Source: Chiloscyllium plagiosum (taxonomy: Eukaryota). Taken from it: 64,000 bases of DNA. Location of the stretch: NCBI RefSeq assembly GCF_004010195.1, contig NC_057751.1:12726908-12790907 (forward strand), read 5' to 3'. The notes beneath the pieces were generated by a model. It saw only the letters and a list, made by a program, of their open reading frames with translations, did no database searches and was not told where the DNA came from. This document shows positions 2,003 through 23,765 of this stretch, one piece after another. The translations under genes were made by a program, and so were the position numbers. Numbering within the stretch: position 1 is the stretch's first letter; every line of letters starts with the position of its first letter.

Positions 2003-2036
2003 ATGACGCCTTTTGCTCTGTCTCTTCTGATCGACG
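2003..2036 (+). CDS. Tentative first coding (signal peptide) exon of SRCR receptor gene: MTPFALSLLID(G)
   Basis: ATG at 2003, short hydrophobic run FALSLLI, phase-1 donor G|gtaaaa at 2037 compatible with the next exon. Joined product MTPFALSLLIDGTPGNSQA/RRSGNVRL has a plausible SQA cleavage site. The hydrophobic core is short, so the true first exon may lie elsewhere. Confidence 0.35.
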
Positions 2037-2677
2037 GTAAAACATTACGTTGAGGGATGGGGATAGCATGAGGTGATCTTGGACTGGACAGCATGCCAAC
2101 CCGTGTGATCTTTATGCTATGGAGGCAGTGGCCAAGGACAAAATCTTGTGTGTAAGCTGCCAGAACAGTTAATAAATCATACCTTCCCTGCAGTTTAGTG
2201 TGTTTGTTGCCTGCTGTTTCATATTAGACGATGTTGATTTTAAATTTTGATGTCCTGTAGTTAAAATAGTAAGACTTCAAGATGCGTTTGTCACTGGGAA
2301 ATGAATACAAGCTTTACAACATGATAGGTGCCTCTGTGGATGCTAACTGACCAGATTAATTAGGGCTTCTTCGAGAAAGCGGTAAACAACCTCGTCTGCT
2401 CAGTCAGAACAATGTCTGGCTTGGGTGTGAGTGTGGATATGTGAAAAGAACCAGGTCACATGTTTGCAAGTTACCAACATTGCTTCACTGCAAAAATTGT
2501 ATCATCGTTTTACATGAGTATTGCGGAAGCAGAGATAGTCATAGATATAGACATGATTTCTTCCGCAGAGTGTCAGGAAAACTTCCCTCCCCGTTTGTTG
2601 TATTTATCGCGTTTCCTTCAGACAGTTTCATGGATTGCTTGACCGGACAAACACTAATTCTCATCCTCTTATTTCAG

Positions 2678-2710
2678 GCACACCCGGGAACAGTCAGGCC
2701 CGCCGATCAG
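2678..2710 (+). CDS. 33-nt mini-exon of SRCR receptor gene: (G)TPGNSQARRS(G)
   Basis: Branch-like CACTAAT, pyrimidine tract ttctcatcctcttatttcag acceptor, CAG|gtaatc donor; 33 nt, open in phase 1-1, joins in frame to SRCR1. Confidence 0.6.
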
Positions 2711-2969
2711 GTAATCTCCCTTTCTTTCAGCTAAACTCTTTATGCTCCATTCCATCCCATTCTGGGTGAAGGCTGCCTGATAATGCCAGTGCCTTTTTGA
2801 TCACGGTTGAACCCACGGTCGGTTTTCCAGTCAGAAAGGGGACTGCGTCCTCACGCTGCTGTTTCTCATCCAGGCGGCAGACTGCTGCCCTCTGAGAGAC
2901 ACACAGACAGACAGACAATGAGGGATCCTCTGCAGTGCACCTCCATTCACGCTGCAGCCTCTCATTTTC

Positions 2970-3080
2970 CACCTCACCAATCCCCACTGACTTCCTGATC
3001 GCTGGATTATCGAGCCCGCCGTCGTATTGGCTGCGAAGGATGGAGGGCGGGGTCTGCCGCTGCCTGGGCCAATCAGCTTT
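2970..3080. promoter_or_regulatory. Candidate TATA-less promoter/enhancer: three CCAAT boxes, GC box, ETS site
   Basis: CCAAT 2977-2981, ATTGG 3026-3030, GGCCAATCAG 3067-3076, GGGCGGGG 3045-3052, CTTCCTG 2991-2997, locally CpG-rich. Motif evidence only. Confidence 0.4.
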
Positions 3081-3372
3081 GGGCACGGCGAGTCACAGTG
3101 CCGACCTCTCGGAGCTGAACAAGGGACCTGCTCAATCTTTCAGCAGCACAGAGCAATTGTGTTCGTGGGAACTTTGCTCTGATTCTCACCCACTGCTCAT
3201 TCACACTGTTTATAATATGTCCCTCTCCGTGTCGTCATGTTTTATATTTATTCCGGATTTATCTCGAGATTTAGAAACAAACCAATGTTCCCAAAGATTC
3301 CTCGCTTCCCTGAGAATGGAGGGGCCAGTAAACTGCGGGTGGTCATCGTGATGTGTCGTTAATGTTTTACAG

Positions 3373-3684
3373 GGAACGTGAGGCTGGTGAATGGGGGCAG
3401 TCCGTGCGCAGGTAGACTGGAGATTCTTCACCAGGGTAGGTGGGGGACTGTGGGTGGTTACAACTGGGACCTGAAGGACGCCGCTGTCGTGTGCCGGGAG
3501 CTGGGCTGCGGGATGGCGCTGTCCGCACCGCGCGGGGCTCACTTTGGAGAGGGCTCGGGTACCGTTGTGACCTCTAATGTTCAGTGCAGTCGAACCGAGT
3601 CTGCTCTGCGGGAGTGTACTTCAAATTCGTGGAGTCACAGAACTGGGTGGTTACACTCTAACGATGCTGGAGTCATCTGCTCAG
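3373..3684 (+). CDS. SRCR receptor exon, SRCR domain 1 (group B, lacks C2 and C7)
   Basis: tttacag acceptor, TCAG|gtaaaa donor, 312 nt; VRLVNGGSPCAGRLEILHQGRWGTVGGYNWD...VVCRELGCG...NDAGVICS. Confidence 0.93.
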
Positions 3685-4419
3685 GTAAAAAATCTCTCTG
3701 CGTCCTCTCATCTCGGTGGTGGGTCTGTGATCTTCCCGAACATGACTAAAAAAACAAGTGAAACGCAGTACCCCAGAAACCAAGACATGTAATGACAATA
3801 ATTCCAGAGTTCTCCAGTGATTATTGGGTTGTTATGAAGACAACTGTTTGTTTTTCGTTGATGGGAAATTTTGAAATGTTTAGTTTGAATAAACATTCTG
3901 CATTAGGAGCAGGCAAGGCTCAATATTGTTCAATCTTCTATTGCGATTTGCCCTGAAGATGCAAGGAACGAGCTAAACTGCTGGAAATCCAATAAACCCA
4001 GCAACCATAATCGGGCATGAATAACCAGAGGGTAGATTCAGGGAGAAGGCGATAAGTGTCGGAGGGTGGTGGGGGGCGGCTTGCTGGGGATCTACAGTAA
4101 ATAAAGGTAAAGGCTCTATATTACCACCCTCTCACTGATAATGGTTCCTGAGCTCATGGTTCACGGTGAGATCATACTTGGACAGAAATTAAGGAGCTCA
4201 GAGTGGATCGAGAGGGTCTCGGCTCTCGGGCAGGTAACACGGCAGACAGCGGCACAGTAACATCCAACCTCAGTCGGAAATGTCGCGTCATTTTTTCTGA
4301 TATGTTGATATATAATAAATAAAAACAAGGACAATCTCTGAGACAGGGAAAGTATCAATCCTTTATTTGTCTTATGGTCTTAAAACAAATCATAGTACAG
4401 CTCGAGACTGAACGAAGGA

Positions 4420-4610
4420 GCTGAGTTGGCTGAGTGTACCTCTTGCTACCCAGAATGATGCCGTCAGCATTGGTTCAATTCCCACAAGGCTGAGGTTACC
4501 ATGGAGGTATTTCCTTCTCAGCTGCCTCCCTTGTTCTCGGCTTGGTGACCATCACATGTCTTCGCTCTCTCTCTCTCACACAGGCAGCCCTGTGGTCCAG
4601 TGCTTTATAG
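4420..4610 (+). mobile_element. Old tRNA-type SINE fragment
   Basis: B-box-like GGTTCAATTCCC followed by GGCTGAGGTTACCATG body, which I recall as a common elasmobranch SINE; degenerate. Confidence 0.4.
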
Positions 4611-4702
4611 AGTGATATCTGGACGTCTGTTGTGAGGAAACAATATCCCCATAAGGGGTACAATTTAAACATAAAGGCCTGTTTTCTCTAGACCTGAGAA
4701 GA

Positions 4703-5036
4703 GTGGGCGGCACGGTGGCGTGGGCGGCATGGTGGCACAGTGGTTAGCACTGCTGCCTCACAGCGCCAGAGACCCGGGTTCAATTCCCGCCTCAGGCGAC
4801 TGACTGTGTGGAGTTTGCACGTTCTCCCCGTGTCTGCGTGGGTTTTCTCCGGGTGCTCCGGTTTCCTCTCACAGTCCAAAGATGTGCAGGGTCAGGTGAA
4901 TTGGCCAGGCTAAATTGCCCGTAGTGTTAGGTAAGGGGTAAATGTAGGGGTATGGGTGGGTTTCGCTTCGGCGGGTCGGTGTGGACTTGTTGGGCCGAAG
5001 GGCCCGTTTCCACACTGTAATCTAATCTAATCTAAT
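4703..5036 (+). mobile_element. HE1/V-SINE-like tRNA-derived SINE, full length, nested in an old CR1 fragment
   Basis: A-box TGGCACAGTGG, B-box GGTTCAATTCC, V-domain-like core, CR1-like 3' end GGGCCGAAGGGCCCGTTTCCACACTG, (TAATC)n tail; 17-bp head duplication at 4703-4736. Flanks read as CR1 LFSLDLRR / NNLI*VFKMLTG. Confidence 0.9.
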
Positions 5037-5924
5037 TAAGCAATAATCTTATCTAAGTCTTCAAGATGTTAACAGGAAAAAGAGGACGGATGAAGGTGAA
5101 TTATTTCTGCTGGTTGGCGATATTGAACGAAGGGGATATCTGAAATTTCAGGCCTGACATTCAAGACAAAGGGTGGTGAAAGGTTTTGAGCTCGCTTCCA
5201 CAAGCACCAGTGGATGTTGGATCAGTTGTTACTTTTAAAAGTGTAGTAAAAAAAATGTAAGTCACGGTATTTAGGGATATGTGCCAAAGGCAGGTAAGTG
5301 GAGTTAGACTAGACATCACCCATGATCTCATTGAGTAACATAACAGTCTGCAAGAGTTGAATGGTCAACTTCCTTTCCCATATTCCGGCATTTCAGTCAA
5401 TAAACAGATGTTCAAGATATGAAAACAAAATGCTGCACCAGAAGATCTCATAGTCCCCATTCCCCTGTAATCCAACTCCATTCTACTTTGAAAATGTAAT
5501 TGTTTTATATTTCACGGTGCACTTGCAGTCTTCTCAGGAATTATTATTCCGGAGGAGTGCGGGAACAGAACATTAGAGTGCTCATAGTAACTGAACATTC
5601 TCTAGAATCTATGACACATTGATTTCAATTCATCAGCATTTGACTTGCTCAGTAGCGAATGTGTTGCAGTCAGAATTAATTCCCCAACGCTCAAGTGAAA
5701 GTCAGGAAACACGCAAAATTCTCTTAACAAAAGGTTGAGTGGTGACAAGATTGGAAATTGATAACACCAGAACGTTTCCACGCACTCACACACAATGATT
5801 TAGGCATATCACCCAAGGATAAGCAAACAGAGAAATCGAATTCTTGATGTGATTGTAGAATCTCTCATCACTTATGACTATAACGACATTAAACAATGAA
5901 AGTTTGTTTTAATTCATTTTCCAG

Positions 5925-6179
5925 GAAATGTCAGGCCCAGACTGGTCCCAGAAAGCACGCCCTGTGCCGGGAGGCTGGAGATTCACTGGGATGGAACATG
6001 GAGGACGGTTTGCAAAGATGGGTCCTGGTCCAGAGAGAATGACGAAGTTATTTGTGAGCTGCTGGACTGTGGCTCTGCAGTGACAATACCGTTGACTTCT
6101 CACTTTGGAGCAGGCTCAGGTCCTGTCATTGGGCCACCAGACTGTGGGCACCAGCGGGACATTGAGGTCATCTGTTCAG
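5925..6179 (+). CDS. SRCR receptor exon, SRCR domain 2 (shortened, 85 codons, lacks C5-C6 segment)
   Basis: ttttccag acceptor, TCAG|gtacaa donor, 255 nt open frame: (G)NVRPRLVPESTPCAGRLEIHWDGTWRTVCKDGSWSRENDEVICELLDCGSAVTIPLTSHFGAGSGPVIGPPDCGHQRDIEVICS. Only partly shown by the ORF track. Confidence 0.88.
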
Positions 6180-6478
6180 GTACAAGCTCCAATTGTTGTG
6201 GAAACCTACATGTTGCCTTCATATATTGTACATCCCTTCTTAGGTTGGAAACATGCATTTCTTAATGAAGGAAAGGGGTGCATTTAGACAGCACAGAGTA
6301 TAATATGCAATCACTTTTAAAAGCAGAGATAGACTGTTCCATGTGTAATCATCAATTCATTAGTCTTTTGGCTGACTTGCAAACTTAGAAGTTTATTAAA
6401 ACTTTTTAGTCTATTGATTTGAAGGACAAAACCAACAGGTTTGCCAAATGAAAAATAGAGAGCTCTCACGTTCAGACA

Positions 6479-6783
6479 GAGATTACATTACATTTTTTAG
6501 ATTACATTACAGTGTGGAAACAGGCCCTTCGGCCCAATAAGTCCACACCGACCCGCCGAAGCGCAACCCACCCACACCCCTACATTTATCCCTTCCCTAA
6601 CACTACGGGCAATTTAGCACGGCCAATTCACCTGACCTGCACATCTTTGGACTGTGGGAGGAAACCGGAGCACCCGGAGGAAACCCACGCAGACACGGGG
6701 AGAATGTGCAAATTCCACACAGTCAGTCGCCTGAGGCGGGAATTGAACCCGGGCCTCTGGCGCTGTGAGGCAGCAGTGCTAAC
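6479..6783 (-). mobile_element. HE1/V-SINE-like SINE, slightly 5'-truncated
   Basis: Reverse complement of the 4703-5036 element, roughly 95% identical over ~277 bp by eye. Confidence 0.9.
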
Positions 6784-6789
6784 CTCTGA

Positions 6790-7720
6790 TTCTCCACTGA
6801 AGCCAGTGCAATCGCACCTTTCCTATAACTACATGCAGTTGTCCAGTTGTGGACTGACAAGGATTTTCTACAGTTCCAGCACAATTTATTGCTCTTGAAA
6901 TATTTCATGTTCTTGAAATATTAGCACCAGTGCATACATTGTCCCTCTATCTACTTTCTTTAATATCCCATCAGTTTCAGGGAACTTCCCATTCTTGAAC
7001 CTATACTTTTATCCAGACATATTTATTGCGTTTATTTCCTCCCGATCCCATATAATGTCTTGATTATTTACTATATTTAGGATTCTATTTGTGCCTTCTA
7101 CCATAACGATTGATTCAAAGTTTCTATTCAATTCCTCTTCATTTCCTCGATCATGATATTCTCCCGAGCTTCAAATCTGGTGGGGTTACGTTCACTTTGA
7201 ATTCTCACTTCCGTAAAAAAGAGTATGTAAGCTCCTTTGATATTAATTCTTAATTTCTCCTGAAATCTATTTTCCAACATGTATATTTTTCAGTTATTCT
7301 TATTGGTTTTGAACCATTTCTAGAGCCCTTCTGTCTTATTTAGGTGGACCCATGCCGTGAGCCAGCTGCCATTGTTCATCAACTGCTTTTTCTATTAAAC
7401 TCTTTTCATCGTCTGCTGCAAATAAACCTGCCATCATTCCTTCGTACTTCACTTTATTTAGGTTTCGTGCAGTTATTTCTGGCTGAAATTTCTCATGCTC
7501 AAATTGAATGCGGGCTTCAATGGAATCGTCTTTGTTTCTTTGGGGATCTTTCACCCTAAAATTACATTTACCCTGAAAAAATCTGCTTCATGTCTCATCA
7601 AAAGTTCCAAAGTAGCCACGATAATTCATACAGTGTGTTCAGTTTTCTGTGTCACCACGTATCAAGAGGATGCATGCCCTGGAATTGACCCCCAGTCCTT
7701 TCCCGATAGATGTGATGAAG
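6790..7720 (-). mobile_element. Old CR1 ORF2 remnants
   Basis: Minus ORF 7336-7554 (DSIEARIQFEHEK...LNKVKYEGM...EQW) resembles the CR1 segment at 24250-24480 (HNMVEFSLQFE...LNKSNYEGM...EQKW). Confidence 0.6.
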
Positions 7721-8177
7721 GGTAAATCTTGCAAGCGGAGGGGAAGAAACTGAGGAAAGGCTGCTTTAAGGGATGAATGTCGAAAAATTGTGAATTTTGC
7801 AAAAGCTCTTTAAAAAGTCCATGTCGATGTGATAACGTTTAAAATTTTGAAAAGAGAAAAAAAAACAGAAAGAAATACTTTTAGTGACCAAATGTCCTTC
7901 TCAACAGATATTTGCAAATTCTCATTGGTAATATGGTGTAAGATCATAACAAGAACCTTGCACACACTCCGTGACAATCCAATCAATACAGCGGTATTAC
8001 TGACATGCGTGTAATGAATATTTCCAATGGGGTTCGGGATGGGTTTGTGCTTAGGGAAGCATAATGATAATTGGGCCACAACCGAAATATACACACAATT
8101 AGTCATGAACATTTCGGTGAATCAAATGCGTACGCCTTCATAAATCATTTGCATGTTTATGATTAATTATTATTCAG

Positions 8178-8492
8178 GTCGCAGAGTTCCCCGGCTTGTA
8201 GATGGAGAGTCTCAGTGCTCGGGCAGACTTGAGATGCTTTACGCTGGGAATTGGGAAACAGTGTGTGACCTTCACTGGGATTTGAACAATGCTAATGTGG
8301 TCTGCGCTCAGCTTAACTGTGGAGTCGCCCTGTCCATTCCGACAAGAATTCGTTTCGGGAATGGCACTGGGCCAATACGGAGAAATCGCTTGGAATGTAA
8401 AGGCAGCGAGAAAAGCCTATTGGATTGTCCTCTTTCTCCAGTATCTCAGTACGAATGCACCCACAGAGATGATGTCAGTGTGATCTGTTCTA
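8178..8492 (+). CDS. SRCR receptor exon, SRCR domain 3 (8 Cys)
   Basis: tattcag acceptor, TCTA|gtgagt donor, 315 nt; PRLVDGESQCSGRLEM...WETVCDLHWD...ECTHRDDVSVICS. Confidence 0.93.
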
Positions 8493-10478
8493 GTGAGTAC
8501 AAACCGACAAGAATGGGACACAACTTGTTCCAGAATATCAGCAAAAATGGTGTTAGTGGCGTTATTGTACTCATCTGCAGTTGGGCCAGATGTAAATCTG
8601 TCCTCACTGTTCGCTATTAATGTAATACATTTTGTGCAACAGGACAAATAAATCCACCTTTATAATTCTGAAAATCAGATTCCTTCTGGAATACGCAGAC
8701 ATGTGGATATTTTAGACCATCAGTTCCTCCTGCGCAGTTGATATAATGTCCCTTGTGAAACAATACAACTGGCCTGCACTGCCACAGTTCTTGTGCAGAC
8801 ACTTCAGAGACGATGGCACTAGATTAATTTTTCCATAAGTACCTCATTATCTGATAGCTATCTTCAGTAAACATCAATTGGTCCAACTCTAGTTGAAAAT
8901 CTTTCAATCTAATACAAGTACCAGAAATGTATTTGCAATATACTTTGATTTAATAGTATGTCGGGCACTTGATGCATGGAAGGTGAATGTCATTAATTAG
9001 AAGTTGACTTCATGAATGACACCTTATGTCATACATGATTAACTATAAAACCATAAATATATCCTGTACTTTCAATGCGCACCGTGCTAAAGAACTTGCA
9101 ATGTACTGACAGAACGTCATTTCCTCCACTTTCTGCAGTCAGTGAGATTCTTTTTTTTAAAAAAATAGCTTGATAACTATTGCTTAGATTCTGGCATATG
9201 TGACGTCACCGAATAGCCACATAACCATAGCTTAATGACCCCATAATTCAGTTTGGAATGCTGTGAGAGAAATAAATATTATCCAGCACACCGGGGAATA
9301 AATCCACTTCTCTTTGAACGAACCCAACAGCCACAACGTGAACAGATTGATGGAGCTCGGTGTAATGTCTGATCTGAAAGTCATTGCTCTTAATAGCACA
9401 CTCCTTTGCTCAAACTCTGGGCTGAGTCTCCAATCTTGTGATCAGGAGGCCAGTGTGATACTGACCATACTGACAATCACACAGCCTTTCAACTATTTAT
9501 GGCGCGGGACTTCGAGTGAAAAACAGTGAATTAGTGGGCGGCTGTGCCCGAGTGTTTCTCAGTCCTATCAAGCCATAGATTGGGATAATTTATTATAGAA
9601 TCAACACACATTTCCACAAATTTACTTGATGAGAAAACTGTCCATACAACGCAGAATATGATATACAACAACTGGTGCAGATTCAGTCATTTAATTCAAA
9701 TGAGCTTGATCTGCACCTCAGCTCCACACAGATGTATTTGATTCATGCCCCTGCATAGTTTCACCAAAAAAAAATCCATTGATTGTAATCTTATTATTTT
9801 CAACTGATCGAAGTAAACAAAAACACTTGTTCTTCGGAAGTGGGTAGCAATATTCCTGAAGGCAACTTCATCTCCTTTCTAAATTGAGTCCTAAACCCAA
9901 ACCCAGTATCGGCAACCGCTCCGGAAGTGGCCATACCTCCATCACAATGTTTGCTGAGAACTGAATAAGGCTGAGCTCCATTCACAATTTCTCAGGCAGA
10001 AAAGAGATCATTGGCAGCAAAAGCTGAACATTATCCAATTTGAAGTCTGGAATTAACATTTACACCAGATGAGTATGAGATATTGAGAGTGATGATTTCC
10101 AACATGACATAGTCTGAGCAATCTCTCTTGGCAGTAAATTGGCATTACCAGTATTCCAGGGATCATAGCACTGGTATGTCATTCTTGATAAGACATTCAC
10201 CTTTGACCCGTCACGTAAAGGTAATGGCTAATGAGCAGATCAAATGGTCCCAAATTTGCGTTAACTTGCCCTGTGTGGAGAACAGGTATACTCGTCAACT
10301 CTCTAAAATGTAGTCACTACAGAAACAAATGGTGGAAAGAATTACCTACAAGCGTTGTGGGCAATTATCAATTAAGATTCCACCACCAACGTTAACAATA
10401 GCTGCCCCTGTGAAAGCTCTTCGTGATGTTTTGCTGGCTGCTCCTGGACTCTGTCTCTTAATGCCTTTCTTCTTACAG

Positions 10479-10793
10479 ATGAAAGGTGGCCACTCAGGTT
10501 GACACATGGTGGAAGTCGGTGTGATGGAAGAGTGGAGATTTACCAGGACGGCAATTGGGGTCAATTACTGGACAAAGGGTGGGACCTGAACGATGCTAAC
10601 GTGGTCTGTAGGCAGTTAGGCTGTGGCGTCGCCATAGCCGCTTACAACTCTTTAAAGTACGGACAACGCGGAGGGACAGTCTGGGCAAATAACATCCAGT
10701 GTAAGGGAAATGAAACGCATCTACGGAACTGCGGCTCAGTCCGGTTGGATTCTCCTGTCCCCGACAGCATTGGCGTAGGGGTCCTGTGTTCAG
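10479..10793 (+). CDS. SRCR receptor exon, SRCR domain 4 (lacks C2 and C7)
   Basis: tcttacag acceptor, TCAG|gtgaat donor, 315 nt; LRLTHGGSRCDGRVEIYQDGNWGQLLDKGWD...GVGVLCS. Confidence 0.93.
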
Positions 10794-11308
10794 GTGAATG
10801 GAGTTTACTTTTACGCAAGCATGAAGATAAGTGTATCATGTGCTCAGAAAGCTGAGGAGATTGGTCACTTATCCCTCGGCGTCACTCAGAGCAGCTTTTG
10901 AAATCAGGGATCTGAGCAGATATTTACTACCCAGGAAGAAGTGAGCAAGAATGGTTTTGTCTGTCATATGTCTCATCATAACGCAGGGAATTTCACAGAA
11001 ACATAATAGGAATGAAAGAAGGGTGGAAGAATGAGATATTACAACAAGTGCCAGTCCTGGTCAGAGAGACTGACTTGAAGAGGATGTGTTCGAACTGGGA
11101 GATTGGGCAGGTTTTCAGAGGGAATTCTGGCTCACAGATATCTGAAGTAGTTCTCTTTTGTACATTCCATCTAACGTTTGTAAAACAGGTTTTGTGCGTT
11201 TCATTCGTTTATAGTTTGCAGTGGCATTTTAAAGTCATTCTTTTGCTTGTGTTGATGCGCTGTCAGTACATATTGAACATAAAATCCTCCTGAATTGATT
11301 CCTGACAG

Positions 11309-11623
11309 ATCACATCCAGATAAGGCTGTCCGGAGGTGGAACCAGATGTGCTGGCCGACTGGAGATTTATTATAATGGTACCTGGGGTTCCGTTTGTGAT
11401 GATTCCTGGGATCTGACAGACGCTGGTGTGGTTTGCAGACAGCTGGGTTGTGGAAGGGCCTTGAACAAGACACTTCCTGCTTCTTGTGAACCCAACTCAG
11501 GCCCCATTTGGTTGGATGAGGTGGACTGTTCCGGGAAGGAAGCATTTCTCTGGAAATGTCCCTCAGCATCGTGGAATAATCACGATTGTCACCATAAAGA
11601 AGATGTGACGATCGTATGTTCAG
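11309..11623 (+). CDS. SRCR receptor exon, SRCR domain 5 (8 Cys plus one extra)
   Basis: cctgacag acceptor, TCAG|gtattg donor, 315 nt; IRLSGGGTRCAGRLEIYYNGTWGSVCDDSWD...IWLDEVDCSGKE...HDCHHKEDVTIVCS. Confidence 0.94.
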
Positions 11624-12149
11624 GTATTGCTCGTTTTCTTAGACTAAAACCCAAAGCTTCACATGGAGCATGCTGTACTCTGTAATACCGATAGTGCATC
11701 ACAGAACAGCAACGTATTCTCTCTGTATAGGGGTCTGGCTGGTCCTGCTGCTCCACACATGCATTAATAACACCAAATAACACCATCTGGGATTCTTGAT
11801 CTTTCCTTCTCGCCCATATATTTACCCAATTTCACCTTAAAGGCATGCACAAAGCTTTCCTCAGGCCGGTTTTCAAATTCCATGTTCTTTGCAATCCTTG
11901 AGTCAAAAATCATTGTCCAGGATTTCCCAATGGATTATTCAAAACGTCTCAGTTAATGATCCTGAAATTTGGACCCGTCGACTATTGAAATAATTGGTGC
12001 TTGTTTATATCGAGATCTCTTTGCTCCTTCTCAATATTAAGATTTTAATTTCCCTAGAATTATGTGGCATCTTTATGCTTCCAAGCAACCCATATCACTT
12101 CAGTTAGAATTACAGTATCAATCTTTTTCGGAATAATCATCGAACAATG

Positions 12150-12404
12150 CACCACAACAATATGGTCTTCAACCACTCTGTCCTCACACTCATGTCTGTG
12201 TGGACCATGATGCTATTTTAAACTAATACCATCTTTCTGCACATGGTCCAGAGCCCTCTATTCCGTGCATGTCCATATGCTTTGTCTAAACACCTCTTAA
12301 ACATTGTTATTATGGTACCTATTTGCACCACTTCCCCTGGCAGCGCATTCCAAGCACCGTCTCTCTATGTAACCAACTTGCCTTGCACATCTCCTTTAAA
12401 TATT
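12150..12404 (-). mobile_element. CR1 3'-end fragment
   Basis: Reverse-complement match to CR1 3' region (CACCACTTCCCCTGGCAGCGCATTCCA, AAACACCTCTTAAA); similar to 13280-13745. Confidence 0.65.
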
Positions 12405-13080: not shown

Positions 13081-13279
13081 TATCAGCAACAAATTCCCTT
13101 GGAACATAAGTTCCCAACTTTTCTGTAGCTACCGTTTACACCGACTTTCTGTTTGCAGAAAGATTTTACAGCAAAATTCTACCGATCTCCTGGTTTGATA
13201 CAGTCAGTTTTTGACTTTATAATAACTTGCGAAAAGTTTTCAAAAATTCAAACAGAGTGAAATTTTACAATTACTTAAT

Positions 13280-13745
13280 TCACATAGAGCTACAGAGATA
13301 TACAGCATGAAAACACACTATTCAGTCCAACTCGTTGATGCCGACCAGATCTCGTCCCATTTGCCAGTATTTGGCCCATATCCCTCTGAATCATTCCTGT
13401 TCATCTTCTCACCCAGATGCATTTTAAAGGTTGCAATTGTGCCATCCTCCACCATTTCCTCTGGTAGCTCATTCCATGCATGCACCACCTTTTGTGTGAG
13501 AAACGTTGCCCCTTTCATCGCTTTTAAAACTTTTCCCTCTCACCTTAAACCTATGCCCTCTAGTTTTGGCTTCCCCTACCCCAGGGAAAAGTCCCAATTT
13601 ACCCTATTTATGCCCGTCATTATTTTGTGAAACTCTATAAGGTCACCCCTCAGCCCCCCTCACACCAGGAATAACAGCTGCAGCCTATTCAGGCTCTCCC
13701 AAACACTTCAACCCTGGAAACATCCTTGTCAATCGTTTCTGAACT
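13280..13745 (-). mobile_element. CR1 (HER1-like) 3' end
   Basis: Minus ORF 13318-13518 FLTQKVVHAWNELPEEMVEDGTIATFKMHL...EGYGPNTGKW is a CR1 ORF2 C-terminus. Confidence 0.88.
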
Positions 13746-13849
13746 CTATTCATTCAAATTGATTCAGGAATTCAAAGAGTTGCCTGAAAGGATTTGGAAA
13801 TTCTTCTTGATTATGAATTTCTATATCTGTAGGAATAAACAGAATGTGT

Positions 13850-15675
13850 TTCTGAAAGGGAATCGTACGTGGCTGACTGGCTGAAGTTTTATTTGAAGAA
13901 GTAACAGAAATACTTGATGATACTAATATTTTACAATTGATTTCAGAGGATATTTAGACATGTGACAAAATGTGTAGGCCTTGTCATAAAAGCGACTGGA
14001 GCAACAACATTGGCAGATTGTTCGCAAAAAGAGAGAAATGGGAAATGGATATTATTTGGGTAGACAAAGGTTTATCGGGAACTGCATAAGAATGCATGGT
14101 TTTCCGAGTTTTAAATCAATATTTTGATGTGCAGGGGACAATGTCAATGCTTACAAGTGACGTGAAACTTTGAAGAACTATAAACTGTGGGAAGGACAAT
14201 GCAGAACTCCAAAAACGTACCGATAAGTTGGTCAGGTGGCCAATAGGAGGCAGACGAGAATCAGTTCAGGGATGTGTGAGGTAATGCATTTTAGCTGGAA
14301 GAACATTGAAATTAAATTTTTAAAAAGGAGGTACACGTTTGAAGGGGGTTGAAAAGCAGAGGGACCTGGGTGCATATGTGCACAGTCATTGAAGGAAGGA
14401 GGACAGGTCGAGACAGCAGTTAAAGCATACTGTGTCCACAGATTTATTAATAGGGGCCTAGAGTACAAGAGCAAGGTGATGATATTAAACTTCGAAGAAA
14501 TACTTTGTTAGGCATCAGCTGGAGTATTGTGCACAGTTGTACGTGCCACATTATACACATTGTGTAGATATTTGTGACAATGCTGCTCCTTTAACAAGGT
14601 AATGCTTCGTCTTTATCAAATACTTTACTGGTTCAAAGGTGTCCAGTTTGTAAGGGTTTTAGGGCCAATTTGATTAGAGCTAACAAATACTGCCGCAGAT
14701 ACAAGGCTTTCAAGTTTAAAGACAATCTTGTACAATGAAAGGGGAGTGGCAAGTTCTCGCAGTTCAGCTTTTTTCTGGTTTGGATTTAATCTGGTTGCTC
14801 AGCATTGGCTGTTCAGGGCAAGCAGTCAGTCAGTTGTGAAGCTGCTGGACCCGAAGAAGCGGTCCATGTTGATCCTCCCTCTCTCCGATATTTCACCTGT
14901 AAGAGCCTGTGTTTGATCTTACCATTTTTTGCAAAGGCTTATTTTTAAGGATTGTCGCAAGTATTTGGAAGAGCATCATAAAGTTGGGATGGTCTGTTGG
15001 GTATTTGATTAGTTACGTTATTCGTTAACCTGTTCTCTTTTGCTTGTCTTTCATTCGGTAATCTTACAAATAAATTCTGTTTTGTGTAAAACGTAGAGAT
15101 TCAGCTAGCTGCACCACTCCAGGAATATCGACCTCATACCTGCTGAAAACAAATAGTGAAGTAAGGGCCATTTTCTTGAAATGTTTTGAGGGAGTCTGGC
15201 CTGGTCCATAATACATTAGAGGCAGTGCAGAAGCGATTTGGAAGAAAGTTCTAGGAATAAAGAGCTTCCGTGTTGAAGATAGCTTGGAAAGAGAAAAAGG
15301 CCGAGGGGAGATTGGATAGAAGTTTTCAAAATCCCGAGCGGGCTGGACAGAGTGGATATGAAGACGCTGTCCCTGCTTACAACAGTAGCAAGAAGGAGAA
15401 GGCATAGATTTAAAATGACCTGTAAAAGTAGCAAGTGTGATGTGAGGAAAAATATATTCATACAACTAGCAGAATGGACTGCCTGAAAGTGGGATGGAGT
15501 CAATTCCAATTGAGGCATTCAAAGAGGACATGAGGTGGTTTTCTGGATATTGAGAATGTACACGGATGTGGGGGAAAGCAGGAGATTGTTACTAAGTCAT
15601 GACGCTTCTTTGACGAACCAGTACAGAATGGACCGAATCGTCAATTTCTGCACCGTAAGACATGTGTGATTCTGT
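13850..15675 (+). mobile_element. Degenerate CR1 RT to 3' end, interrupted by an LTR-like insertion
   Basis: CR1 motifs (EFFEEV-like, QRDLG, LEYCAQ) to 14572, resuming at 15214 with LEAVQKRF. Confidence 0.65.
14573..15213. mobile_element. Probable solo LTR inserted in CR1
   Basis: ~640-bp non-CR1 block starting TGTGAC and ending CCATAATA (decayed ...CATAACA), imperfect 4-bp TSD tatt/catt, internal AATAAA near 15069; CR1 frame is continuous across it. Confidence 0.6.
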
Positions 15676-15818
15676 GCCTTGAGTTGTCGCTGTTTAGCTT
15701 TCTGATTAAGTACTGGTGATCAGTGAACACAAACGGTGCAACATGTCTCCCAGCTGTGTTGCGACAAACAGCCTATTTCCCGAGTGAACTGCCCGGATAT
15801 TTCTGATTTTATTAACAG

Positions 15819-16130
15819 AACACAAAGAGCTGAGGCTGGTGAATGGTAAGCATCGCTGCGAGGGGAGAGTGGAAGTGTTCTACAATGGGACCTGGGGAAC
15901 CGTGTGCTCTGAAAATCTGGATGACCACGACGCGCAAGTGATCTGTAAACAGTTAGAGTGCGGCGACCTCGTTTCCCAAGACACTAAGTATTTCGAACAG
16001 GGATCTGGACAAATCTGGTTGGATGAGGTTGAGTGTAATTTCCAAGAGACGACCCTTTGGCAGTGCCAGTCAGAGCCCTGGGGGCAACATAACTGTAATC
16101 ACTTGGAAGATACCGGCGTGATTTGTTCAG
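15819..16130 (+). CDS. SRCR receptor exon, SRCR domain 6 (8 Cys)
   Basis: attaacag acceptor, TCAG|gtaaca donor, 312 nt; ELRLVNGKHRCEGRVEVFYNGTWGTVC...WGQHNCNHLEDTGVICS. Confidence 0.94.
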
Positions 16131-16384
16131 GTAACACAGCAAATCTCTCAAGGGGCAGGGTGGGAGGAGGTGGGGGGGGGGGCGGGGTTTGTCCTTTTAA
16201 ACCTTAACCTTTGACATAGTCAGTTCGTTTATCTTATTCACAGAAATCAACAAAGGCAATAAGCAGCCCGACAGTTCAAATGACTGCAATCAAAGACCAG
16301 GTAATTGCTCTACTTTGTCAGATTGAAGATCTGTCTTGTACTCCTAGCTTCCCCTGTCACATAAAATTGACCTTTTTTTGACAG

Positions 16385-16702
16385 AAGCGGGATTTGATTT
16401 GCGCCTGGTTGGAGGCAATAGCAACTGTACTGGGACTGTGGAGATCTTGTACAACAACACTTGGGGCACAGTGTGTGATGACTCCTGGGATCTGGCTGAT
16501 GCCAGGGTTGTCTGCAGACAACTGGCATGTGGTCCCGCTCTATTGGCCTCAGGAGGAACAACTTTTGCCCAGGCTGACGGTGTCATCTGGCTGGATGAAG
16601 TGAAATGCACGGGAAGTGAATCTTTTCTGTCCGACTGTCCTTCCTTACTCTCAGCTCAGCCTGACTGTGACCATAAGGAAGATGCCCGGGTGATCTGTTC
16701 CG
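16385..16702 (+). CDS. SRCR receptor exon, SRCR domain 7 (8 Cys, membrane proximal)
   Basis: tttttttgacag acceptor, TCCG|gtaggg donor, 318 nt; LRLVGGNSNCTGTVEILYNNTWGTVCDDSWD...DCDHKEDARVICS. Confidence 0.94.
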
Positions 16703-16847
16703 GTAGGGACGCTACTGAGTGATTGGGTTGAATCTTGATTGGGGAACATTATCCAGTGTTATTGCATATTGCAATGAGCTGTTGTCTTTCTGAAGTAAAA
16801 TCTCAGTTTTTGACATTCATGAGTATTTTTTACAATGCATTTCACAG

Positions 16848-16889
16848 AGCCTGATTTGTCACCGAATCCTACCCCGGCCACATCTACAG
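16848..16889 (+). CDS. SRCR receptor exon, Pro/Ser/Thr-rich stalk (E)PDLSPNPTPATST
   Basis: tttcacag acceptor, ACAG|gtattt donor, 42 nt, phase 1-1, mucin-like composition. Confidence 0.85.
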
Positions 16890-17073
16890 GTATTTATAAT
16901 TAAGACTTGCTCCTGTTCCTGTTGGAGTTCTGACTCGTGAGAGTCGTCTTATTGACATAGCCGTACGATTGTTAATTTCAGAAGTTTAGATTAGTTTTAA
17001 ATCGTGTGAAACATTTGACATGTTCAAGGTGGACTATGTCTGTATTAATTGTTTCTGTAACCCTGCCATTTAG

Positions 17074-17190
17074 AACAAGGAGATAAAACCAGTTCCATCC
17101 TTCCTGCTGTTTGCATCACCCTAGCTGCCCTGATACTCTGTGAGTTAATCGCGCTACTGGCTGTAAGACAGAGAAAGTTTAAAATAAAAG
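17074..17190 (+). CDS. SRCR receptor exon, transmembrane segment
   Basis: catttag acceptor, AAAG|gtaagg donor, 117 nt; (E)QGDKTSSILPAVCITLAALILCELIALLAVRQRKFKIK: 23-aa hydrophobic run then basic stop-transfer. Too short for the ORF track. Confidence 0.9.
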
Positions 17191-17729
17191 GTAAGGTTCA
17201 AATCTTCTACCCAAACCAACAACGGTTCTCCGAGGTTCCTGATTCTACTCAAGTGTTGACAAGACTTTTCCGGGGCGTAGAGAAATCATTTGACCTTATT
17301 AGAAATCAAGATGAATCCGTTTCTGGCCACGTGTTTTGTTCAGGGCATTTCTGAAGTCACTGAAAGGCGACATTGGAACTGGGAGCTGATTTAAAATGTC
17401 CCCATTCATTCAGCACATAGAACACCGGAAGAAGTTACTTGGGACAATGGGTCAGAAATTTTCATTGAACTCTTTGGCCTTTGCGTTCAATTATCTGCTT
17501 CTCAGTTACTCTTCCTTATGGGTGTCGTCAGAATACCCCAATTCACTCAACGTTCAATCGCAACCATTTCCTTCATATCCCAGCACGAACATATCACTTC
17601 TCATGAGTGTGGAAAACATGGCACTTTTTATGACACAGCAAAAACAAATCCCTGACAAACTGATGCTATCCTCAGAGATCAGTCGATTTAATGTACAGTC
17701 TCCCCACAAATGATTCGCAAATGAATATC

Positions 17730-18065
17730 TGGGTGAGCGGGTTGGTGAGTGTCGGTGCTTTCATGCGTAATCTGTGAATGTGCGTGAGTGTACGTATGCG
17801 TGTTATTGCGTTATTCTGAGTGAATACCAGGATGTCACGCAATGTCCATGTGTCACAGTGTGTGAGAGTGTTTGAGTATTTGCATTTGTGTGTGTGTGTG
17901 TAAGTTTGTGAGAGAGTGCTTACGCGTGTGTTAGTATATTTATGAGTGAGTGCTTCTTGATGCATCTGCGTGATTAGTGCCTATTGTGAGTGGCTGTTTG
18001 TGTGTCAGGGAATATGTATGTCAGTGAATGTGTGCGTTTGTGTGTCAATGAATATGTTTGTGAGG
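17730..18065. repeat. Degenerate (TG)n / GT-rich low-complexity tract
   Basis: Dense TGTG/GAGT repeats. Confidence 0.8.
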
Positions 18066-18474
18066 ATAAGTATGTGACGGACAATATTAATTGAAGACCT
18101 GGCAGTGAATATAGATTTGACAAGATTCAGTGGGACGAGTTTATTTGTGTGATAAAGGGACTGACAAAGCCCCAAACAGCATGATTTTTAAAACAAATAC
18201 ACAATTGTACTTCCCTCAAATGTTAACAGGTCTTGAACATATCCTTCTATCACTCCAACATACCTTGTATTCATTTTTCGAAAAGTAGTGACACTTTCTG
18301 TAATATCAGAGAATCACAGGATTGTTACTGTGCAGAAGGACACCGCCCAGCCAACCTCGCCTATCCTGTTCTCTGAAGGAGCATCATGACTTTTGCGCCA
18401 TTCTCCTGCCTTTCCTCCCTTAACCCGACAAACCTGTTCCTCTTGGATTAATGATCCATGCATTTGAATGTCTC

Positions 18475-18610
18475 AGAGGTAAAAACAATGACTGCAGATG
18501 CTGGAAACCAGATTCTGGATCAGTGGTGCTGGAAGAGCACAGCAGTTCAGGCAGCATCCGAGGAGCTTCGAAATCGACGTTTCGGGCAAAAGCCCTTCAT
18601 CAGGAATAAA
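18475..18610 (-). mobile_element. Short Penelope-like terminal repeat fragment carrying a hammerhead motif
   Basis: Reverse complement matches the 3' end of the Penelope element at ~55035-55110 (CCTGAWGAAGGG...GATGCTGCCTG...GCTGTG.TCTTCCAGC). Confidence 0.75.
18572..18607 (-). ncRNA. Minimal type-I hammerhead ribozyme core (Penelope-associated)
   Basis: Minus strand reads AUUC-CUGAUGA-A-GGGC-UUUU-GCCC-GAAA-C-GUC-GAUU: conserved core, 4-bp stem II, loopless stem III with GUC site; stem I is weak. Confidence 0.6.
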
Positions 18611-19315
18611 GCTCAGGAATGTCAGGAATGTCTCAGTGTGCTTCCTCGCACACATCAGGCAATGAATTCCTGACTCAAGCTACTTGCTGTGGCAAACTAT
18701 TTATTGTTGCATTACTCTTTGAAGCTATGCTCTCTGGTTGTCGAGATCTATTTTTATGAGTTGGGTCCCCAACTACCCTCTTCAGCCCGTCATGATTTTA
18801 AAAGCCTCTGTCAAATTTCCTTGAATCTTTCTTTTCTCCATGAAAATCATCCATACTTCTTCAATCTATCCTCGTAACTGAAGTTCCCTCTCGTTGAACA
18901 AATCTTATAAACCTCTTCTACACACTCTCCCAGTGCATTTGCATCAATCCTATAATATGCTGCCCAGAACAGTTGTAAACATTTCTCCAACTGAAGTCTA
19001 ACTCATGTTTAAACAAGTAACAATAAGTTTCCTTCCATGAAACTCTCCAACATCAATAAAATTGTAAAATCAAGTGAAGATTGATTGTAAAGAGATTTAT
19101 GAGATACGAATTTACAAGCAGACACTTCAGAGACAGAAAGTAGAGCTGCACTTCAAAGCACCTCTCCCTTCAAAGAGACACACGTTGGCACTGCATTTGC
19201 CACCGTACAGGAAGAGCGACTATTCATGTTATGGTGCCTGCGAGCACAGCTTTCTTGTTAACCCTGCATGCAATACAACAAAATGTTAATCTCTCCTTCC
19301 TCCATCCTTCTACAG

Positions 19316-19423
19316 TTGCCCTTTCTGACCACTGGGATTCCACTGCTGGTTTATACCAAGGAATTTATGAAGAGATTGAGAATATTGCAGCGGGCAAGCA
19401 TTCAGCTCAGACACATGGCTCAG
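19316..19423 (+). CDS. SRCR receptor cytoplasmic exon 1 (LYQGIYEEI)
   Basis: Long pyrimidine tract plus ctacag acceptor, TCAG|gtacaa donor, 108 nt; (V)ALSDHWDSTAGLYQGIYEEIENIAAGKHSAQTHGS. Confidence 0.88.
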
Positions 19424-20099
19424 GTACAAAATTCCATCCTTTCACCTCCCAATTTCTGTTGCTCAGTGGTCAATGCACTGATTGGGTACAGTTGGAAGCT
19501 CACCACACCGAGTGAACATCGTCGTGGCCTGTCCTCAGATAACCAGTTTTAAAATGTGCATTGTGCGTCACAATATTTAGGCCAATGACGGTACTCAAAT
19601 CTGTAGATCTTTCAATTCTTTCGGACATAGGGAAGGCTTAGATGGGGAAGGTCAGTCTCGAAACTGAAAGATAAAAGAATCGGAAAAAGGATCCTCTTTG
19701 CAACATTTTGTGACCACACAGCCCTGGTCGGATTGACAGCTAGCTGATTTTTAAAAGACACAGGAGCAAACTCCGTTCACTGACACGATATGAAAAAAAA
19801 ACAGATCAGATATTTTCCTCTGCGCTGAGATAGGAGGTGTTAGCTTTAGCAACGAGCTGTACGGTGTGAGTTGGTGTCAGTTCAATGGTAGGATCGACAG
19901 CGGGTCAACGTTTTGAGCCCAGATGACTTTGCCTATCCTTTGTTGCTCTGACAAAATGATGCAAGCCATCCCTCTTCATACACTGCAACAAATGTTCTGC
20001 CTCAATCGTGTCTGGCCTCAAACTGACGCAGGGACCGGTAAATGGATTCGGTTCCCTTCTCCGAACATCCTAATCACAACTCGCTTTTGTGTTTTACAG

Positions 20100-20210
20100 T
20101 TTCTTCTTCCCGTGACTCACTCAATCACATCGAATATTACACCAGTCAAGGTTTGGGTGAAAATGATCCTGGACCAGCGAATCCTGAAGGAAACTCCTCC
20201 AGTACTCCGG
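20100..20210 (+). CDS. SRCR receptor cytoplasmic exon 2
   Basis: gttttacag acceptor, CCGG|gtttgc donor, 111 nt; (V)SSSRDSLNHIEYYTSQGLGENDPGPANPEGNSSSTP. Confidence 0.8.
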
Positions 20211-20554
20211 GTTTGCATCTTCACAATTTGCAAATATCCTTTTTTATTACATGTATGCTTCACGTTATCTGCTACCAAAAATCAAAAGATAAAGACGTCG
20301 AGCGACACAACGCCATAGAATGGCGCTGCCCAGAACCAGCAGTGCCAGAGAGTGATCTGACTGTTATAATTAATAGCTCGGCTGAATGTATGCACAGCTT
20401 CAGTGATTCAGTGGAATGGGATTTTAAAACTAAGATACGGCCCTCTCATCTCATTAATTTTCCCGCCTTACAAATTCCTCCTAGATTGATACATAATTGT
20501 ACATTGTTTGGTGCGAAGTATTCGTTTTCAATGAAAATCCCTCGTTCATTCTAG

Positions 20555-20686
20555 GTCCGTTTGCAGGCAATTATGATGATATTGAGACTGAAACTAATGA
20601 CACGCGGGACAGTCACTTGCTGCTTGATCCTGGTCCCGAGGATTTTTCCAAACTGAGACCGAGCAGCGGCGACGGCGCCGCTCTGG
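20555..20686 (+). CDS. SRCR receptor cytoplasmic exon 3 (NYDDI, DSHLLL)
   Basis: cattctag acceptor, CTGG|gtgagt donor, 132 nt; (G)PFAGNYDDIETETNDTRDSHLLLDPGPEDFSKLRPSSGDGAAL. Confidence 0.83.
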
Positions 20687-21399
20687 GTGAGTTAACCCTC
20701 AGCAATGTTTGCTAGTGCTGTCTAACAGAATCAACTGTGTGTTTATAGAACATCTACGAGGAACCAACTACACATGTGAGAGTAATTTTAATTACAAAAT
20801 ATTGCAGAAGGGTCCTGGACTTGAAACAGTGTCGTGTCTATTGCGCCCTGTGTATTGCTACCTCTTTAAATTGCAGACACAGCCAGGAGCTTTTCCACAA
20901 ATTTGCACTTCTGAAAGGTGATTGGAGTTCGTGTAATTACAGGGGATGTACGAAGCTGCAATTTCAGTGGAACACCTCTTCCCCGAACAGCAACAAAAAG
21001 ACTTGGTGTCTGAGGATCAGACGTTTCAGCAGTTATAATTCTTGTTGCCTGCTGTAGAGGCACTGTGTAGTTCAAAGGACCAATATAGATCAGTATCTAA
21101 TTGAGAGAGGAGGGAGGCGTGGGCGGAATCTCTGATACCTCAACCGTTTTGCTTTGAGATGAGTGTTTAGCATAACTGAACTCACACCGATTTCTGGAGC
21201 ATGATTCTCGTTGACTCGCACAGAGAAAGTGCCAGGAACGCTTGTCAATAAGAGTCAAACCATCTGATCAGCTGCTCAGGCATGTTTCTGCTTCTCCAAG
21301 GCCAATTGAGCCAAGCATGCTCTCGTATTTCCCTCTCCTTCAACCTTCAACTGGTATCATTCACGATTTTCTGTCCTATCTCCCACAGATTTTCTCTGA

Positions 21400-22690
21400 G
21401 CTCACCTGACCCAGGAGAGCCGCTTCCTGCTCCCTGGACCGGATTTCTATTAAACCAGTTACCACTAAGCTTCCCCATTTCCCACTGTCAACACCCTCTT
21501 CCCGCTGAAAACCTGCCCCAACTCCAGCAGATATTTTTCAGACTTCTTTCACTCTCTCTGAAGGTCTCCGCAGTAATGACTGCGTTCCTCCCAGATTTTC
21601 CCTTCCCCTCACTATCCATGTTATTTCACAACCTTTGACATCCTTTTCCAAGACAAAGACCTGGAATGTTCTGTCACCTCAGAAATGCTTGCCAAACACT
21701 GCACAAAACTGCATATGCATGTCCTATCACTCACGTTTCCATGCTTGCCACACGACTGATCACATCTGCATTCAGAAACACGAAGCTAGTTCGCATTTGC
21801 CAACGAACAGTACCTGAAATTGCCTCAAGACAGTCTCTTTTGGCTCCTCCACTGTTACTAAGTGGTCAGCCTGGGTTTTTATATTCTATGCTAGTAAATC
21901 AGAAGTTTCTTCCTACTCAATACTAGGAATTCTGAAGACCTTTTCTTCACTACCCAATGCATGTTTTATTTTCTGGCTGTGGACACCATTGCTTTCCATT
22001 AAAAGGGTAACCGCAGACATTTCCCAACCGTGATGCCACAGTTGATTGCCATGCTATCTGAAAGAGTAACTGTTGCTTTCTTTGTGACATTGCATGACCC
22101 CACAGTGCACAGCCACAGCTTTGAAATATGTGCCTTTCATTTTTCCAACAAACACTTCGGGAGCCAAAGACATTTCCCTTGAGGTTATTTAAATCTCCCA
22201 TACTCGTCCTGTCACCATTCATCCAACACTGTTGTGTGCTCTGACTTTCACTGGTTCTATTTAAGCACTGGTCATTTTAAAACATTCATCTTTACCTTCA
22301 AAAACCTCCATCTGCTGACGGATCTTGCTCTATAATCGTATCCAGCCCCGCCATGTTCCTTTAAATCTGGCTCATGGAGTAACCTTGATTTTAATTACTG
22401 TATATTTGCTGGTTTTGACCACAGTTACTAAAGCTGTAAATATTGATTCCCCTCCCGAAATGTTTCTGCTTCCTCAGCTTGAATTCTCATTCCGTACACT
22501 ATTCGATTTCCACTTCCAGGAACCTCTTCAGTTTTCTCTTTCTAGATGCTATTTCAAACTTATCTCTCTGAACAAGGTATTGGTCGCACAGCCTATAATC
22601 ACTCTATTGTCTCATTTCCGAATGCTCCTGTGAAACCTTGTCTTATAAGATTAGGTTAACTGTGCTTTATAAATGCAAGTTATTGCTAAG
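21400..22690 (+). mobile_element. Fragmented L2 LINE remnants
   Basis: CSLD-like start (CTGCTCCCTGGACC), SDFHW...FK segment near 22240-22310, and L2-type tail GCTTTATAAATGCAAGTTATTG. Confidence 0.5.
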
Positions 22691-22733
22691 ATTTCTGTAT
22701 AATCAGTAATCTATAATCTGTTTCTCCCCACAG

Positions 22734-22855
22734 AGTACAGTACCCAAAGACGCTTTGATCCCGATTTCCCACTTCCTTCCCGGTTTGGAAACAATGGAAA
22801 TATTCAGCAAGATGTGGTCGCATTTGCAAAGCTTACTGCTGCAGATAGGCAGTGA
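22734..22855 (+). CDS. Probable terminal coding exon of SRCR receptor
   Basis: tgtttctccccacag acceptor; phase-1 frame (E)YSTQRRFDPDFPLPSRFGNNGNIQQDVVAFAKLTAADRQ*, TGA at 22853-22855. Confidence 0.65.
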
Positions 22856-23759: not shown

Positions 23760-23765
23760 AATAAA
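23760..23765 (+). terminator. Candidate polyadenylation signal of SRCR receptor gene
   Basis: AATAAA followed by GT/T-rich sequence ~20-50 nt downstream, ~0.9 kb after the stop. Confidence 0.5.

Follow-up and report, generated by a model that had tools for sequence, protein, structure and literature searches.

The described members of the CD163 family of SRCR receptors differ in the order of their domain classes, which is h-i-j-k-b-c-d-e-d' in CD163A, a-b-c-d-e-d-b-c-d-e-d' in WC1 and m-l-b-c-n-d-e-d' in CD163c-alpha; domain n, which lacks Cys2 and Cys7, is diagnostic of CD163c-alpha and is missing from bovine and swine WC1 (Herzig 2010, PMC2906472). The same survey, which goes back to chicken and platypus, describes a Y-(Q/E)-(D/C/E)-(I/L) motif as common to WC1 and CD163c-like proteins, with its phosphorylation required for WC1 co-signalling, and bovine CD163c-alpha as enriched in T cells of the gamma-delta type. 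In cattle, the SRCR domains of WC1 bind bacteria, the receptor co-clusters with the T-cell receptor (TCR) of gamma-delta cells, and phosphorylation of its YEEL tyrosine, which fyn, blk and lyn are able to carry out, is needed (PMC8356672); the tails of type I WC1 are encoded by four exons (PMC3511184, PMC2681482). Here we analyze a 64,000-nt window from the bamboo shark Chiloscyllium plagiosum (GCF_004010195.1, NC_057751.1, positions 12,726,908-12,790,907 of the forward strand). The window holds a gene for a putative signalling receptor of the CD163c/WC1 type, with seven SRCR domains, a transmembrane segment and a tail bearing tyrosine motifs, which belongs, judged from its sequence, to a family already present in the last common jawed-vertebrate ancestor.

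Fifteen exons at window positions 2678-22855 on the plus strand, where all features of the gene lie, join as one open frame; exon borders were set by script, and splicing is predicted from sequence throughout. Every intron of the gene is in phase 1 and bounded by GT-AG, 14 of 14 internal exons have lengths that are multiples of 3, and each acceptor is preceded by a pyrimidine tract (0.61-0.89). The 953 residues from exon 2 to the stop codon are identical to those of a bamboo-shark RefSeq protein, XP_043537050.1 (P0126), named 'DMBT1-like', so the same junctions were picked by an independent gene predictor. The C. punctatum orthologue is 94% identical (896/949) and has the same tail motifs, and the zebra shark sequence is 71-85% identical per domain. 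By all these measures the gene is real and intact. A first-pass annotation of this DNA had read 15 in-frame phase-1 exons over 2003..22855; the frame and phase hold, while the number of exons in that span is 16.

The exons encode the end of the leader and the start of the mature protein (33 nt, 2678..2710), seven SRCR domains, a Pro/Ser/Thr-rich stalk (16848..16889), a transmembrane segment followed by basic stop-transfer residues (17074..17190) and the tail. All seven SRCR exons score above the Pfam cut-off, with 6, 6, 8, 6, 9, 8 and 8 cysteines in SRCR1 to SRCR7; the protein has a single transmembrane helix (19-residue hydropathy 2.77), and the tail comprises 165 residues, in agreement with the seven SRCR domains, stalk, transmembrane segment and approximately 165-residue tail first proposed. 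Tandem group B SRCR domains with 6-8 cysteines and one exon each, and membrane-proximal e and d' domains separated by an interdomain exon and followed by a single transmembrane segment, are features by which the CD163 family is recognized, and both sets are present here.

To the domains we assign the order x-(b/c short)-b/c-n-d-e-linker-d'. Reference proteins came from three protein searches (best 120 of 1118, 12 of 12 and best 120 of 680), and their domains were classed by position; for the class profiles we took domains of bony vertebrates and no others, and their scores were normalised over 1489 domains and compared with a negative set of 532 domains of non-family proteins. A motif pattern for n matched 0 of 7 n references and was discarded. 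The domain tree (LG+G4) was computed from 87 hand-picked domains and 102 columns, with two long-branch rows excluded.

SRCR4 (10479..10793) is without Cys2 and Cys7, scores z=6.2 with the n profile (negative-set maximum 2.3) and falls in a six-row clade (100/98) together with the n domains of turtle, owl and lungfish. The slow-evolving SRCR6 (15819..16130) is of class e by profile (z=4.0; negative-set maximum 2.4) and groups with e domains in the tree (99/95); a 57-nt linker exon (16244..16300) separates it from SRCR7 (16385..16702), which, like SRCR5 (11309..11623), is of class d/d' and groups with d' domains (95/87). The corresponding profile scores are z=3.9 for e and 3.6 for d in SRCR5 (negative-set maxima 2.4 and 3.1) and a weak 2.8 for d' in SRCR7 (negative-set maximum 2.9). 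SRCR2 (5925..6179) and SRCR3 (8178..8492) sit in a b+c clade (97/95) in which b and c are not separated, and by normalised profile SRCR3 is a c domain (z=4.8; negative-set maximum 3.6). Only SRCR1 (3373..3684), with six cysteines, is left without a class: it groups with the first domains of shark and skate proteins, is unplaced in the domain tree, and scores z=2.8 with the a profile, under the negative-set maximum of 3.1; its grouping with sheep domain a is not rejected by the approximately unbiased (AU) test (p=0.36), and the a profile has only six members, one of them from wallaby and placed with d' in the tree.

Domain by domain, then, the phylogeny puts six of the seven in b/c, n, e or d' groups and none among DMBT1 domains, with SRCR1 the one that escapes the CD163-family placement; a quick version of the tree gave support of 97 for n, 98 for b+c and 87 for e. 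The last five domains share their cysteine counts and linker pattern with turtle, owl and lungfish proteins. Neither the profiles nor the domain tree place any h-i-j-k domain among the SRCR domains of the window, and Pfam finds SRCR only, with no CUB or ZP domain, in P0126. The initial identification of a CD163c/WC1-type receptor of the CD163 family, as opposed to CD163A or DMBT1, is supported. SRCR2 is short (84 residues, Pfam positions 4-61 of 100): approximately 20 residues with Cys5 and Cys6 are gone, the other three disulfide pairs are kept, and the same short form occurs in zebra shark (73% over 82 residues). A folded SRCR core is predicted for it (predicted local distance difference test score, pLDDT, 85; template-modelling score ~0.83 to CD163 domains).

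The 165-residue tail has six tyrosines and is encoded by four exons: the first carries YQGI and YEEI (19316..19423), the second IEYYT, which has its homologue in the YYT segment found in the tails of turtles and echidna (20100..20210), the third YDDI and a dileucine-type motif (20555..20686), and the fourth ends in the stop codon (22734..22855). The tail motifs quoted in the first-pass annotation are thus all found in the translation, and the tail holds no immunoreceptor tyrosine-based activation or inhibition motif (ITAM or ITIM). YEEI, at tail position 26, conforms to the Y-(Q/E)-(D/C/E)-(I/L) motif of CD163c-alpha/SCART and lies 26 residues past the transmembrane segment, against 23-28 residues in each of the 11 tails, ranging from skate to cattle, used for comparison. 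Of 18 chondrichthyan proteins, 15 have YEEI, including that of the skate Amblyraja; the three that lack it are a partial model from epaulette shark, one from Rhinoraja and a repeat protein of Mobula without a transmembrane segment. When 11 tail exons are aligned, YEEI does not vary in any of them (11 of 11), but they were found by similarity or by YEEI itself and so are not independent.

We compared the cytoplasmic part with 19 tails by pairwise local alignment, with 1000 shuffles each. Three turtle tails scored 97-118 and that of kiwi 72, with 0 of 1000 shuffles as high in each case; scores for echidna, wallaby, marmot, serow, a mammal-type record, sturgeon and tarpon were matched by 8-28 of 1000 shuffles, and two CD163L1 tails and two unrelated SRCR tails were at chance. 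Against a mammal-only tail profile, the shark tail scored above 500 of 500 shuffles. The turtle-shark alignment spans YEEI, the YYT segment and residues beyond, and on these alignments the shark tail is homologous to turtle WC1-like tails. A segment absent from owl, wallaby and cattle tails starts at the border of shark tail exons 1 and 2, which suggests a conserved intron at this point. Among 109 tails from the best 120 of 680 protein matches, YYT-type motifs occur in 79, YD[DN]-type motifs in 94 and the first motif in 108, the last a partly circular count since these tails were found by tail profile. With four exons after the transmembrane exon, the tail departs from the two-exon cytoplasmic arrangement of bovine CD163c-alpha and agrees with WC1, whose tails have 4-6 exons and a YEEL-type motif followed by YDD.

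In a tree of the concatenated n-d-e-d' domains (27 rows, 409 columns, mixture model, without mammalian SCART1), the rows from sharks and skates, 11 in all, make up a single clade (97/96), ray-finned fish form another, and WC1, CD163A and CD163L1 fall together among the amniotes; the topology follows the species tree. Since sharks and skates have a clade of their own and a grouping of the window gene with the WC1 clade is rejected by the AU test (p=9e-6), the shark gene is, on this phylogeny, co-orthologous to the whole bony-vertebrate family (WC1, CD163A, CD163L1) rather than to WC1 alone. Gene conversion has been invoked for CD163-family domains (Herzig 2010, PMC2906472), and within-lineage gene conversion could hide older paralogy or orthology. 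The family occurs in sharks, skates and bony vertebrates, i.e. on either side of the shark/bony-fish split, so the n-d-e-d' cassette and tyrosine tail date, by their phylogenetic distribution, to the last common jawed-vertebrate ancestor; an early jawed-vertebrate origin, as first proposed, is thereby supported for the family and not for WC1 as such. The comparison also suggests that signalling receptors of this family predate those that scavenge haemoglobin.

The first tail exon has 10 matching places in the genome (10/10 candidates). Within 264 kb of C42, no SRCR gene other than the window gene is present. It belongs to a multigene family, which forms tandem arrays on C44 and C13, and is itself a single dispersed copy. 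The C44 array (14.87-15.27 Mb) has 40 SRCR matches and 5 YEEI exons, and for five full-length first-type domains of its paralogues the a profile gives the highest scores (z 3.1-4.9); it is flanked by exons of IPO4, PARP2 and HNRNPC/RALY, genes that neighbour TCR alpha/delta in human. At C44:12.4-14.5 Mb lie 23 of the 150 V-set matches listed; one V segment tested matched TCR alpha V domains best among single-domain chains, and at 14.56-14.61 Mb there is a constant exon with J-like segments on either side; a search with the C exon gave nothing diagnostic. V segments, J-like segments and a constant exon make up TCR alpha/delta loci in other vertebrates, and because of this shared layout the region is suggestive of a TCR alpha/delta-type locus, approximately 0.4 Mb from the C44 array. 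Within the array (14.97-15.22 Mb; L032-L048, L077), some of the close paralogues have stops or partial exons. An immunoglobulin (Ig)-heavy-like V segment with an upstream stop was read by eye among the TCR-like V segments (L153:414-764, C44 ~14.351 Mb); Ig-heavy V segments are mixed into shark TCR delta loci. IgNAR loci have been placed on chromosome 44 (PMC12138478).

On C13, 22 SRCR matches at 60.11-60.31 Mb (L051-L070) form genes ordered x-y-b-c-n-d-e-d' with YEEI and YYT exons of their own, and eight n-type matches reach over 59.86-60.44 Mb. As read from the domain assignments, this eight-domain order is that of CD163c-alpha and the best shark match to the SCART1 layout. The C13 array is flanked by class C G-protein-coupled receptor (GPCR; V2R/CaSR-like) and amino-acid-permease exons. 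When synteny markers were sought through their Pfam families, no match was obtained for FUOM, EMG1 or TCR alpha constant, and C12orf57 matched only on an unplaced contig. To our knowledge, none of the neighbours of the window gene or of the C44 and C13 arrays fits the mammalian WC1/CD163 or SCART1 neighbourhood, so synteny assigns no orthology. A tentative and rather doubtful scenario is that sharks have kept the receptor at no fewer than three loci, one array still being linked to TCR alpha/delta, and that WC1 and SCART of mammals, as well as CD163A, the receptor for haemoglobin, branched off from it later.

As to function, we lean towards a role of the window gene product as a T-cell or lymphocyte co-receptor, and the shark receptor likely helps lymphocytes sense microbes. 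It would be a single-pass receptor whose SRCR domains likely bind microbial or cell-surface ligands; by analogy with cattle WC1, it may co-cluster with the TCR, and Src-family kinases may phosphorylate the YEEI tyrosine. SH2 proteins, which prefer ligands of the pYEEI type, could then dock on pYEEI and possibly on pYDDI, and antigen-receptor signalling in T cells would be boosted. In cod, a tcrg/tcrd T-cell cluster expresses an m130/CD163-like gene, which that study left unplaced (PMC9276791). In the bamboo-shark single-cell data, tcrd expression is low, and a gene that goes under the name of tongue-sole 'DMBT1' is a T-cell marker there (PMC11372145); a nurse-shark single-nucleus paper does not mention the family in its text or in one supplement, by term search (PMC10529500).

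A number of results weigh against this reading. The accessible marker table for bamboo shark (8,645 rows, PMC11372145 Data 2) contains no DMBT1, M130, WC1 or SRCR description, and the TCR linkage, which is no more than suggestive, concerns the C44 paralogues, whereas the window gene itself adjoins TACR1 and not a TCR locus. The tail is at chance against cattle WC1 (149/1000 shuffles), its link to the WC1 tail going via turtles and kiwi, and it is likewise at chance against owl (561/1000) and two teleosts (93 and 174/1000); CD163L1 tails equal it on the tail profiles. The bootstrap of the domain tree is unsettled (0.938) with just 102 columns, and a grouping of the shark domains at position e with DMBT1 passes the AU test unrejected (p=0.10). 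By raw score, SRCR6 favours the DMBT1 profile (138.8 bits, the best) and d, and in a PDB search it is closer to CD163 domain 7 than to domain 8. The trees held no mammalian SCART1, CD5 or CD6 sequence; PDB scores for two single domains put CD163 and DMBT1 chains above CD6 and CD5, in a search that is not diagnostic.

YEEI, YQGI and YDDI also match the endocytic Yxx-hydrophobic pattern and stand beside a dileucine-type motif in a tail with no ITAM or ITIM, as would suit a member of the same family that acts as an endocytic or pattern-recognition scavenger receptor on myeloid or epithelial cells, its motifs serving internalisation and not TCR co-signalling. The macrophage receptors CD163A and CD163L1 are no less co-orthologues of the shark genes than WC1 is, and the gene is not a T-cell cluster marker in the bamboo-shark table, yet neither is it a macrophage marker there (PMC11372145), and CD163A and CD163L1 have short tails without the YEEI-YYT-YDD series shared by shark, turtle and echidna; the shark protein also lacks h-i-j-k domains. 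We consider such a scavenger, the main rival, unlikely, though still to be reckoned with. As for the first-pass annotation, a specific WC1 identity is not supported: domain n is present and the a-b-c-d-e-d' order without n is not found, domain a is not demonstrable, the shark and skate clade stands apart from a WC1 nested with CD163A and CD163L1, the AU test rejects the grouping, and the cattle tail matches at chance. Four tail exons as in type I WC1, the a-like first domains on C44 and the tolerated pairing of SRCR1 with sheep a speak for a one-to-one or many-to-many orthologue of ruminant WC1, but the a profile behind the C44 scores included the wallaby domain placed with d', and we regard this orthology as largely refuted and very improbable.

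There is similarly little to recommend the view that the window gene is a stray copy of the C44 array which is silent or expressed at low level and has no role of its own. It does lie singly, away from the arrays, with a shortened SRCR2, and among the 20 runs listed for the 3' end of the gene none is on record as RNA, an observation that carries no evidential weight; its frame is nevertheless open over 15 exons, 94% identity is retained in C. punctatum, and the short SRCR2 is shared by zebra shark, at 71-85% identity per domain, and is predicted to be folded. A mucosal agglutinin like DMBT1, as the RefSeq name has it, would accord with the raw scores of SRCR3 and SRCR6, both highest for the DMBT1 profile; this is scarcely credible for a protein with SRCR as its only Pfam domain, a transmembrane segment and a long tyrosine tail, whose seven domains are unlike one another rather than near-identical repeats and do not group with DMBT1.

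The name 'DMBT1-like' is misleading because the protein has no CUB or ZP domain. Shark genes of the family sit in databases as 'DMBT1-like' and 'M130-like' with faulty N-termini, while automatic annotation has already given 'WC1.1-like' names to proteins of sturgeon, lungfish and teleosts. Separately, bird and squamate 'DMBT1-like' proteins (P0002, P0036, P0085 and relatives) have 10-16 SRCR domains, a transmembrane segment and a short tail, and fall outside the CD163 domain classes. The gene is already annotated and does not represent a new kind of system; the dating and the linkage result are useful. We found no description of CD163c/WC1-like genes of cartilaginous fish in the open literature, subscription journals being mostly outside the scope of the search; a 2018 study by Redmond, reportedly on shark haptoglobin and CD163, may be relevant to this point. 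The accessible parts of four papers (PMC10770119, PMC12138478, PMC9207270, PMC8721182) contain nothing on the window gene. Since cartilaginous fish have the n-d-e-d' cassette and the three-motif tail, the family goes back to the ancestor of jawed vertebrates. Corrected models provide candidate surface markers for shark T-cell subsets.

The N-terminus needs correction. The first exon of the first-pass annotation (2003..2036) has a donor in phase but a weak leader, with a best 10-residue hydropathy of 1.93 against 2.85 for an upstream exon (L020:7467-7512, approximately window -2533 to -2488) that has 46 coding nucleotides, ends in phase 1 at a GTAAGT donor, encodes a typical signal peptide and is used in the RefSeq models of two Chiloscyllium species. 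The earlier choice is probably wrong, and the true first coding exon is likely this upstream one, approximately 2.5 kb before the window. In the RefSeq models of the two Chiloscyllium species, GPCR-like exons (L018:3624-3992 and approximately window -22837) are fused to the front of the gene; this start is probably a fusion artefact, representing a separate gene or fragment. Downstream of the gene are a candidate polyadenylation signal (23760..23765, +) and a run of N (an assembly gap) within a stretch derived from a long interspersed nuclear element (window ~24490-25190). The gene lies tail to tail with TACR1, the substance-P receptor, whose exons are on the minus strand (window 39509-39826 and 44768-45076; first exon L022:2150-2581), and a tetraspanin exon lies farther along (L029:3866-4090).

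Compared with known systems, the shark receptor shares group B SRCR repeats with DMBT1, whose name it bears in RefSeq, but has neither CUB/ZP domains nor homogeneous repeats, and has a transmembrane segment and a putative signalling tail. CD163A (M130) and CD163L1 (M160) belong to the same family and have the b-c-d-e-d' classes; the shark has neither their h-i-j-k domains nor a short tail of the YREM type or without tyrosine, and in them a c-d linker stands where the shark has n. Ruminant WC1, a pattern-recognition receptor and co-receptor of the gamma-delta TCR, is alike in its one exon per SRCR domain, its e-linker-d' end, a first motif approximately 25 residues from the membrane, a later YDD motif, a four-exon tail and multigene arrays; it differs in having domain a, lacking n and repeating b-c-d-e-d, and its orthology is rejected. 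The CD163c-alpha/SCART1-2 proteins and the chicken and platypus genes that are CD163c/WC1-like hybrids have in common with the shark gene c-n-d-e-d' with an n without Cys2 and Cys7, the interdomain exon, the transmembrane segment and Y-E-E-I (PMC2906472). In place of m and l, neither demonstrable here (no m or l reference was used), the shark has an unplaced domain and a shortened b/c domain, and its tail occupies four exons after the transmembrane exon, whereas that of bovine CD163c-alpha occupies two with the transmembrane exon included. The 'antigen WC1.1-like' proteins of turtle, kiwi and echidna, known from database annotation only, differ in their N-terminal domains and have the closest tails outside sharks, with YEEI followed by the YYT segment and then YD[DN]; in turtle, the cysteine and linker pattern of the last five domains is also that of the shark.

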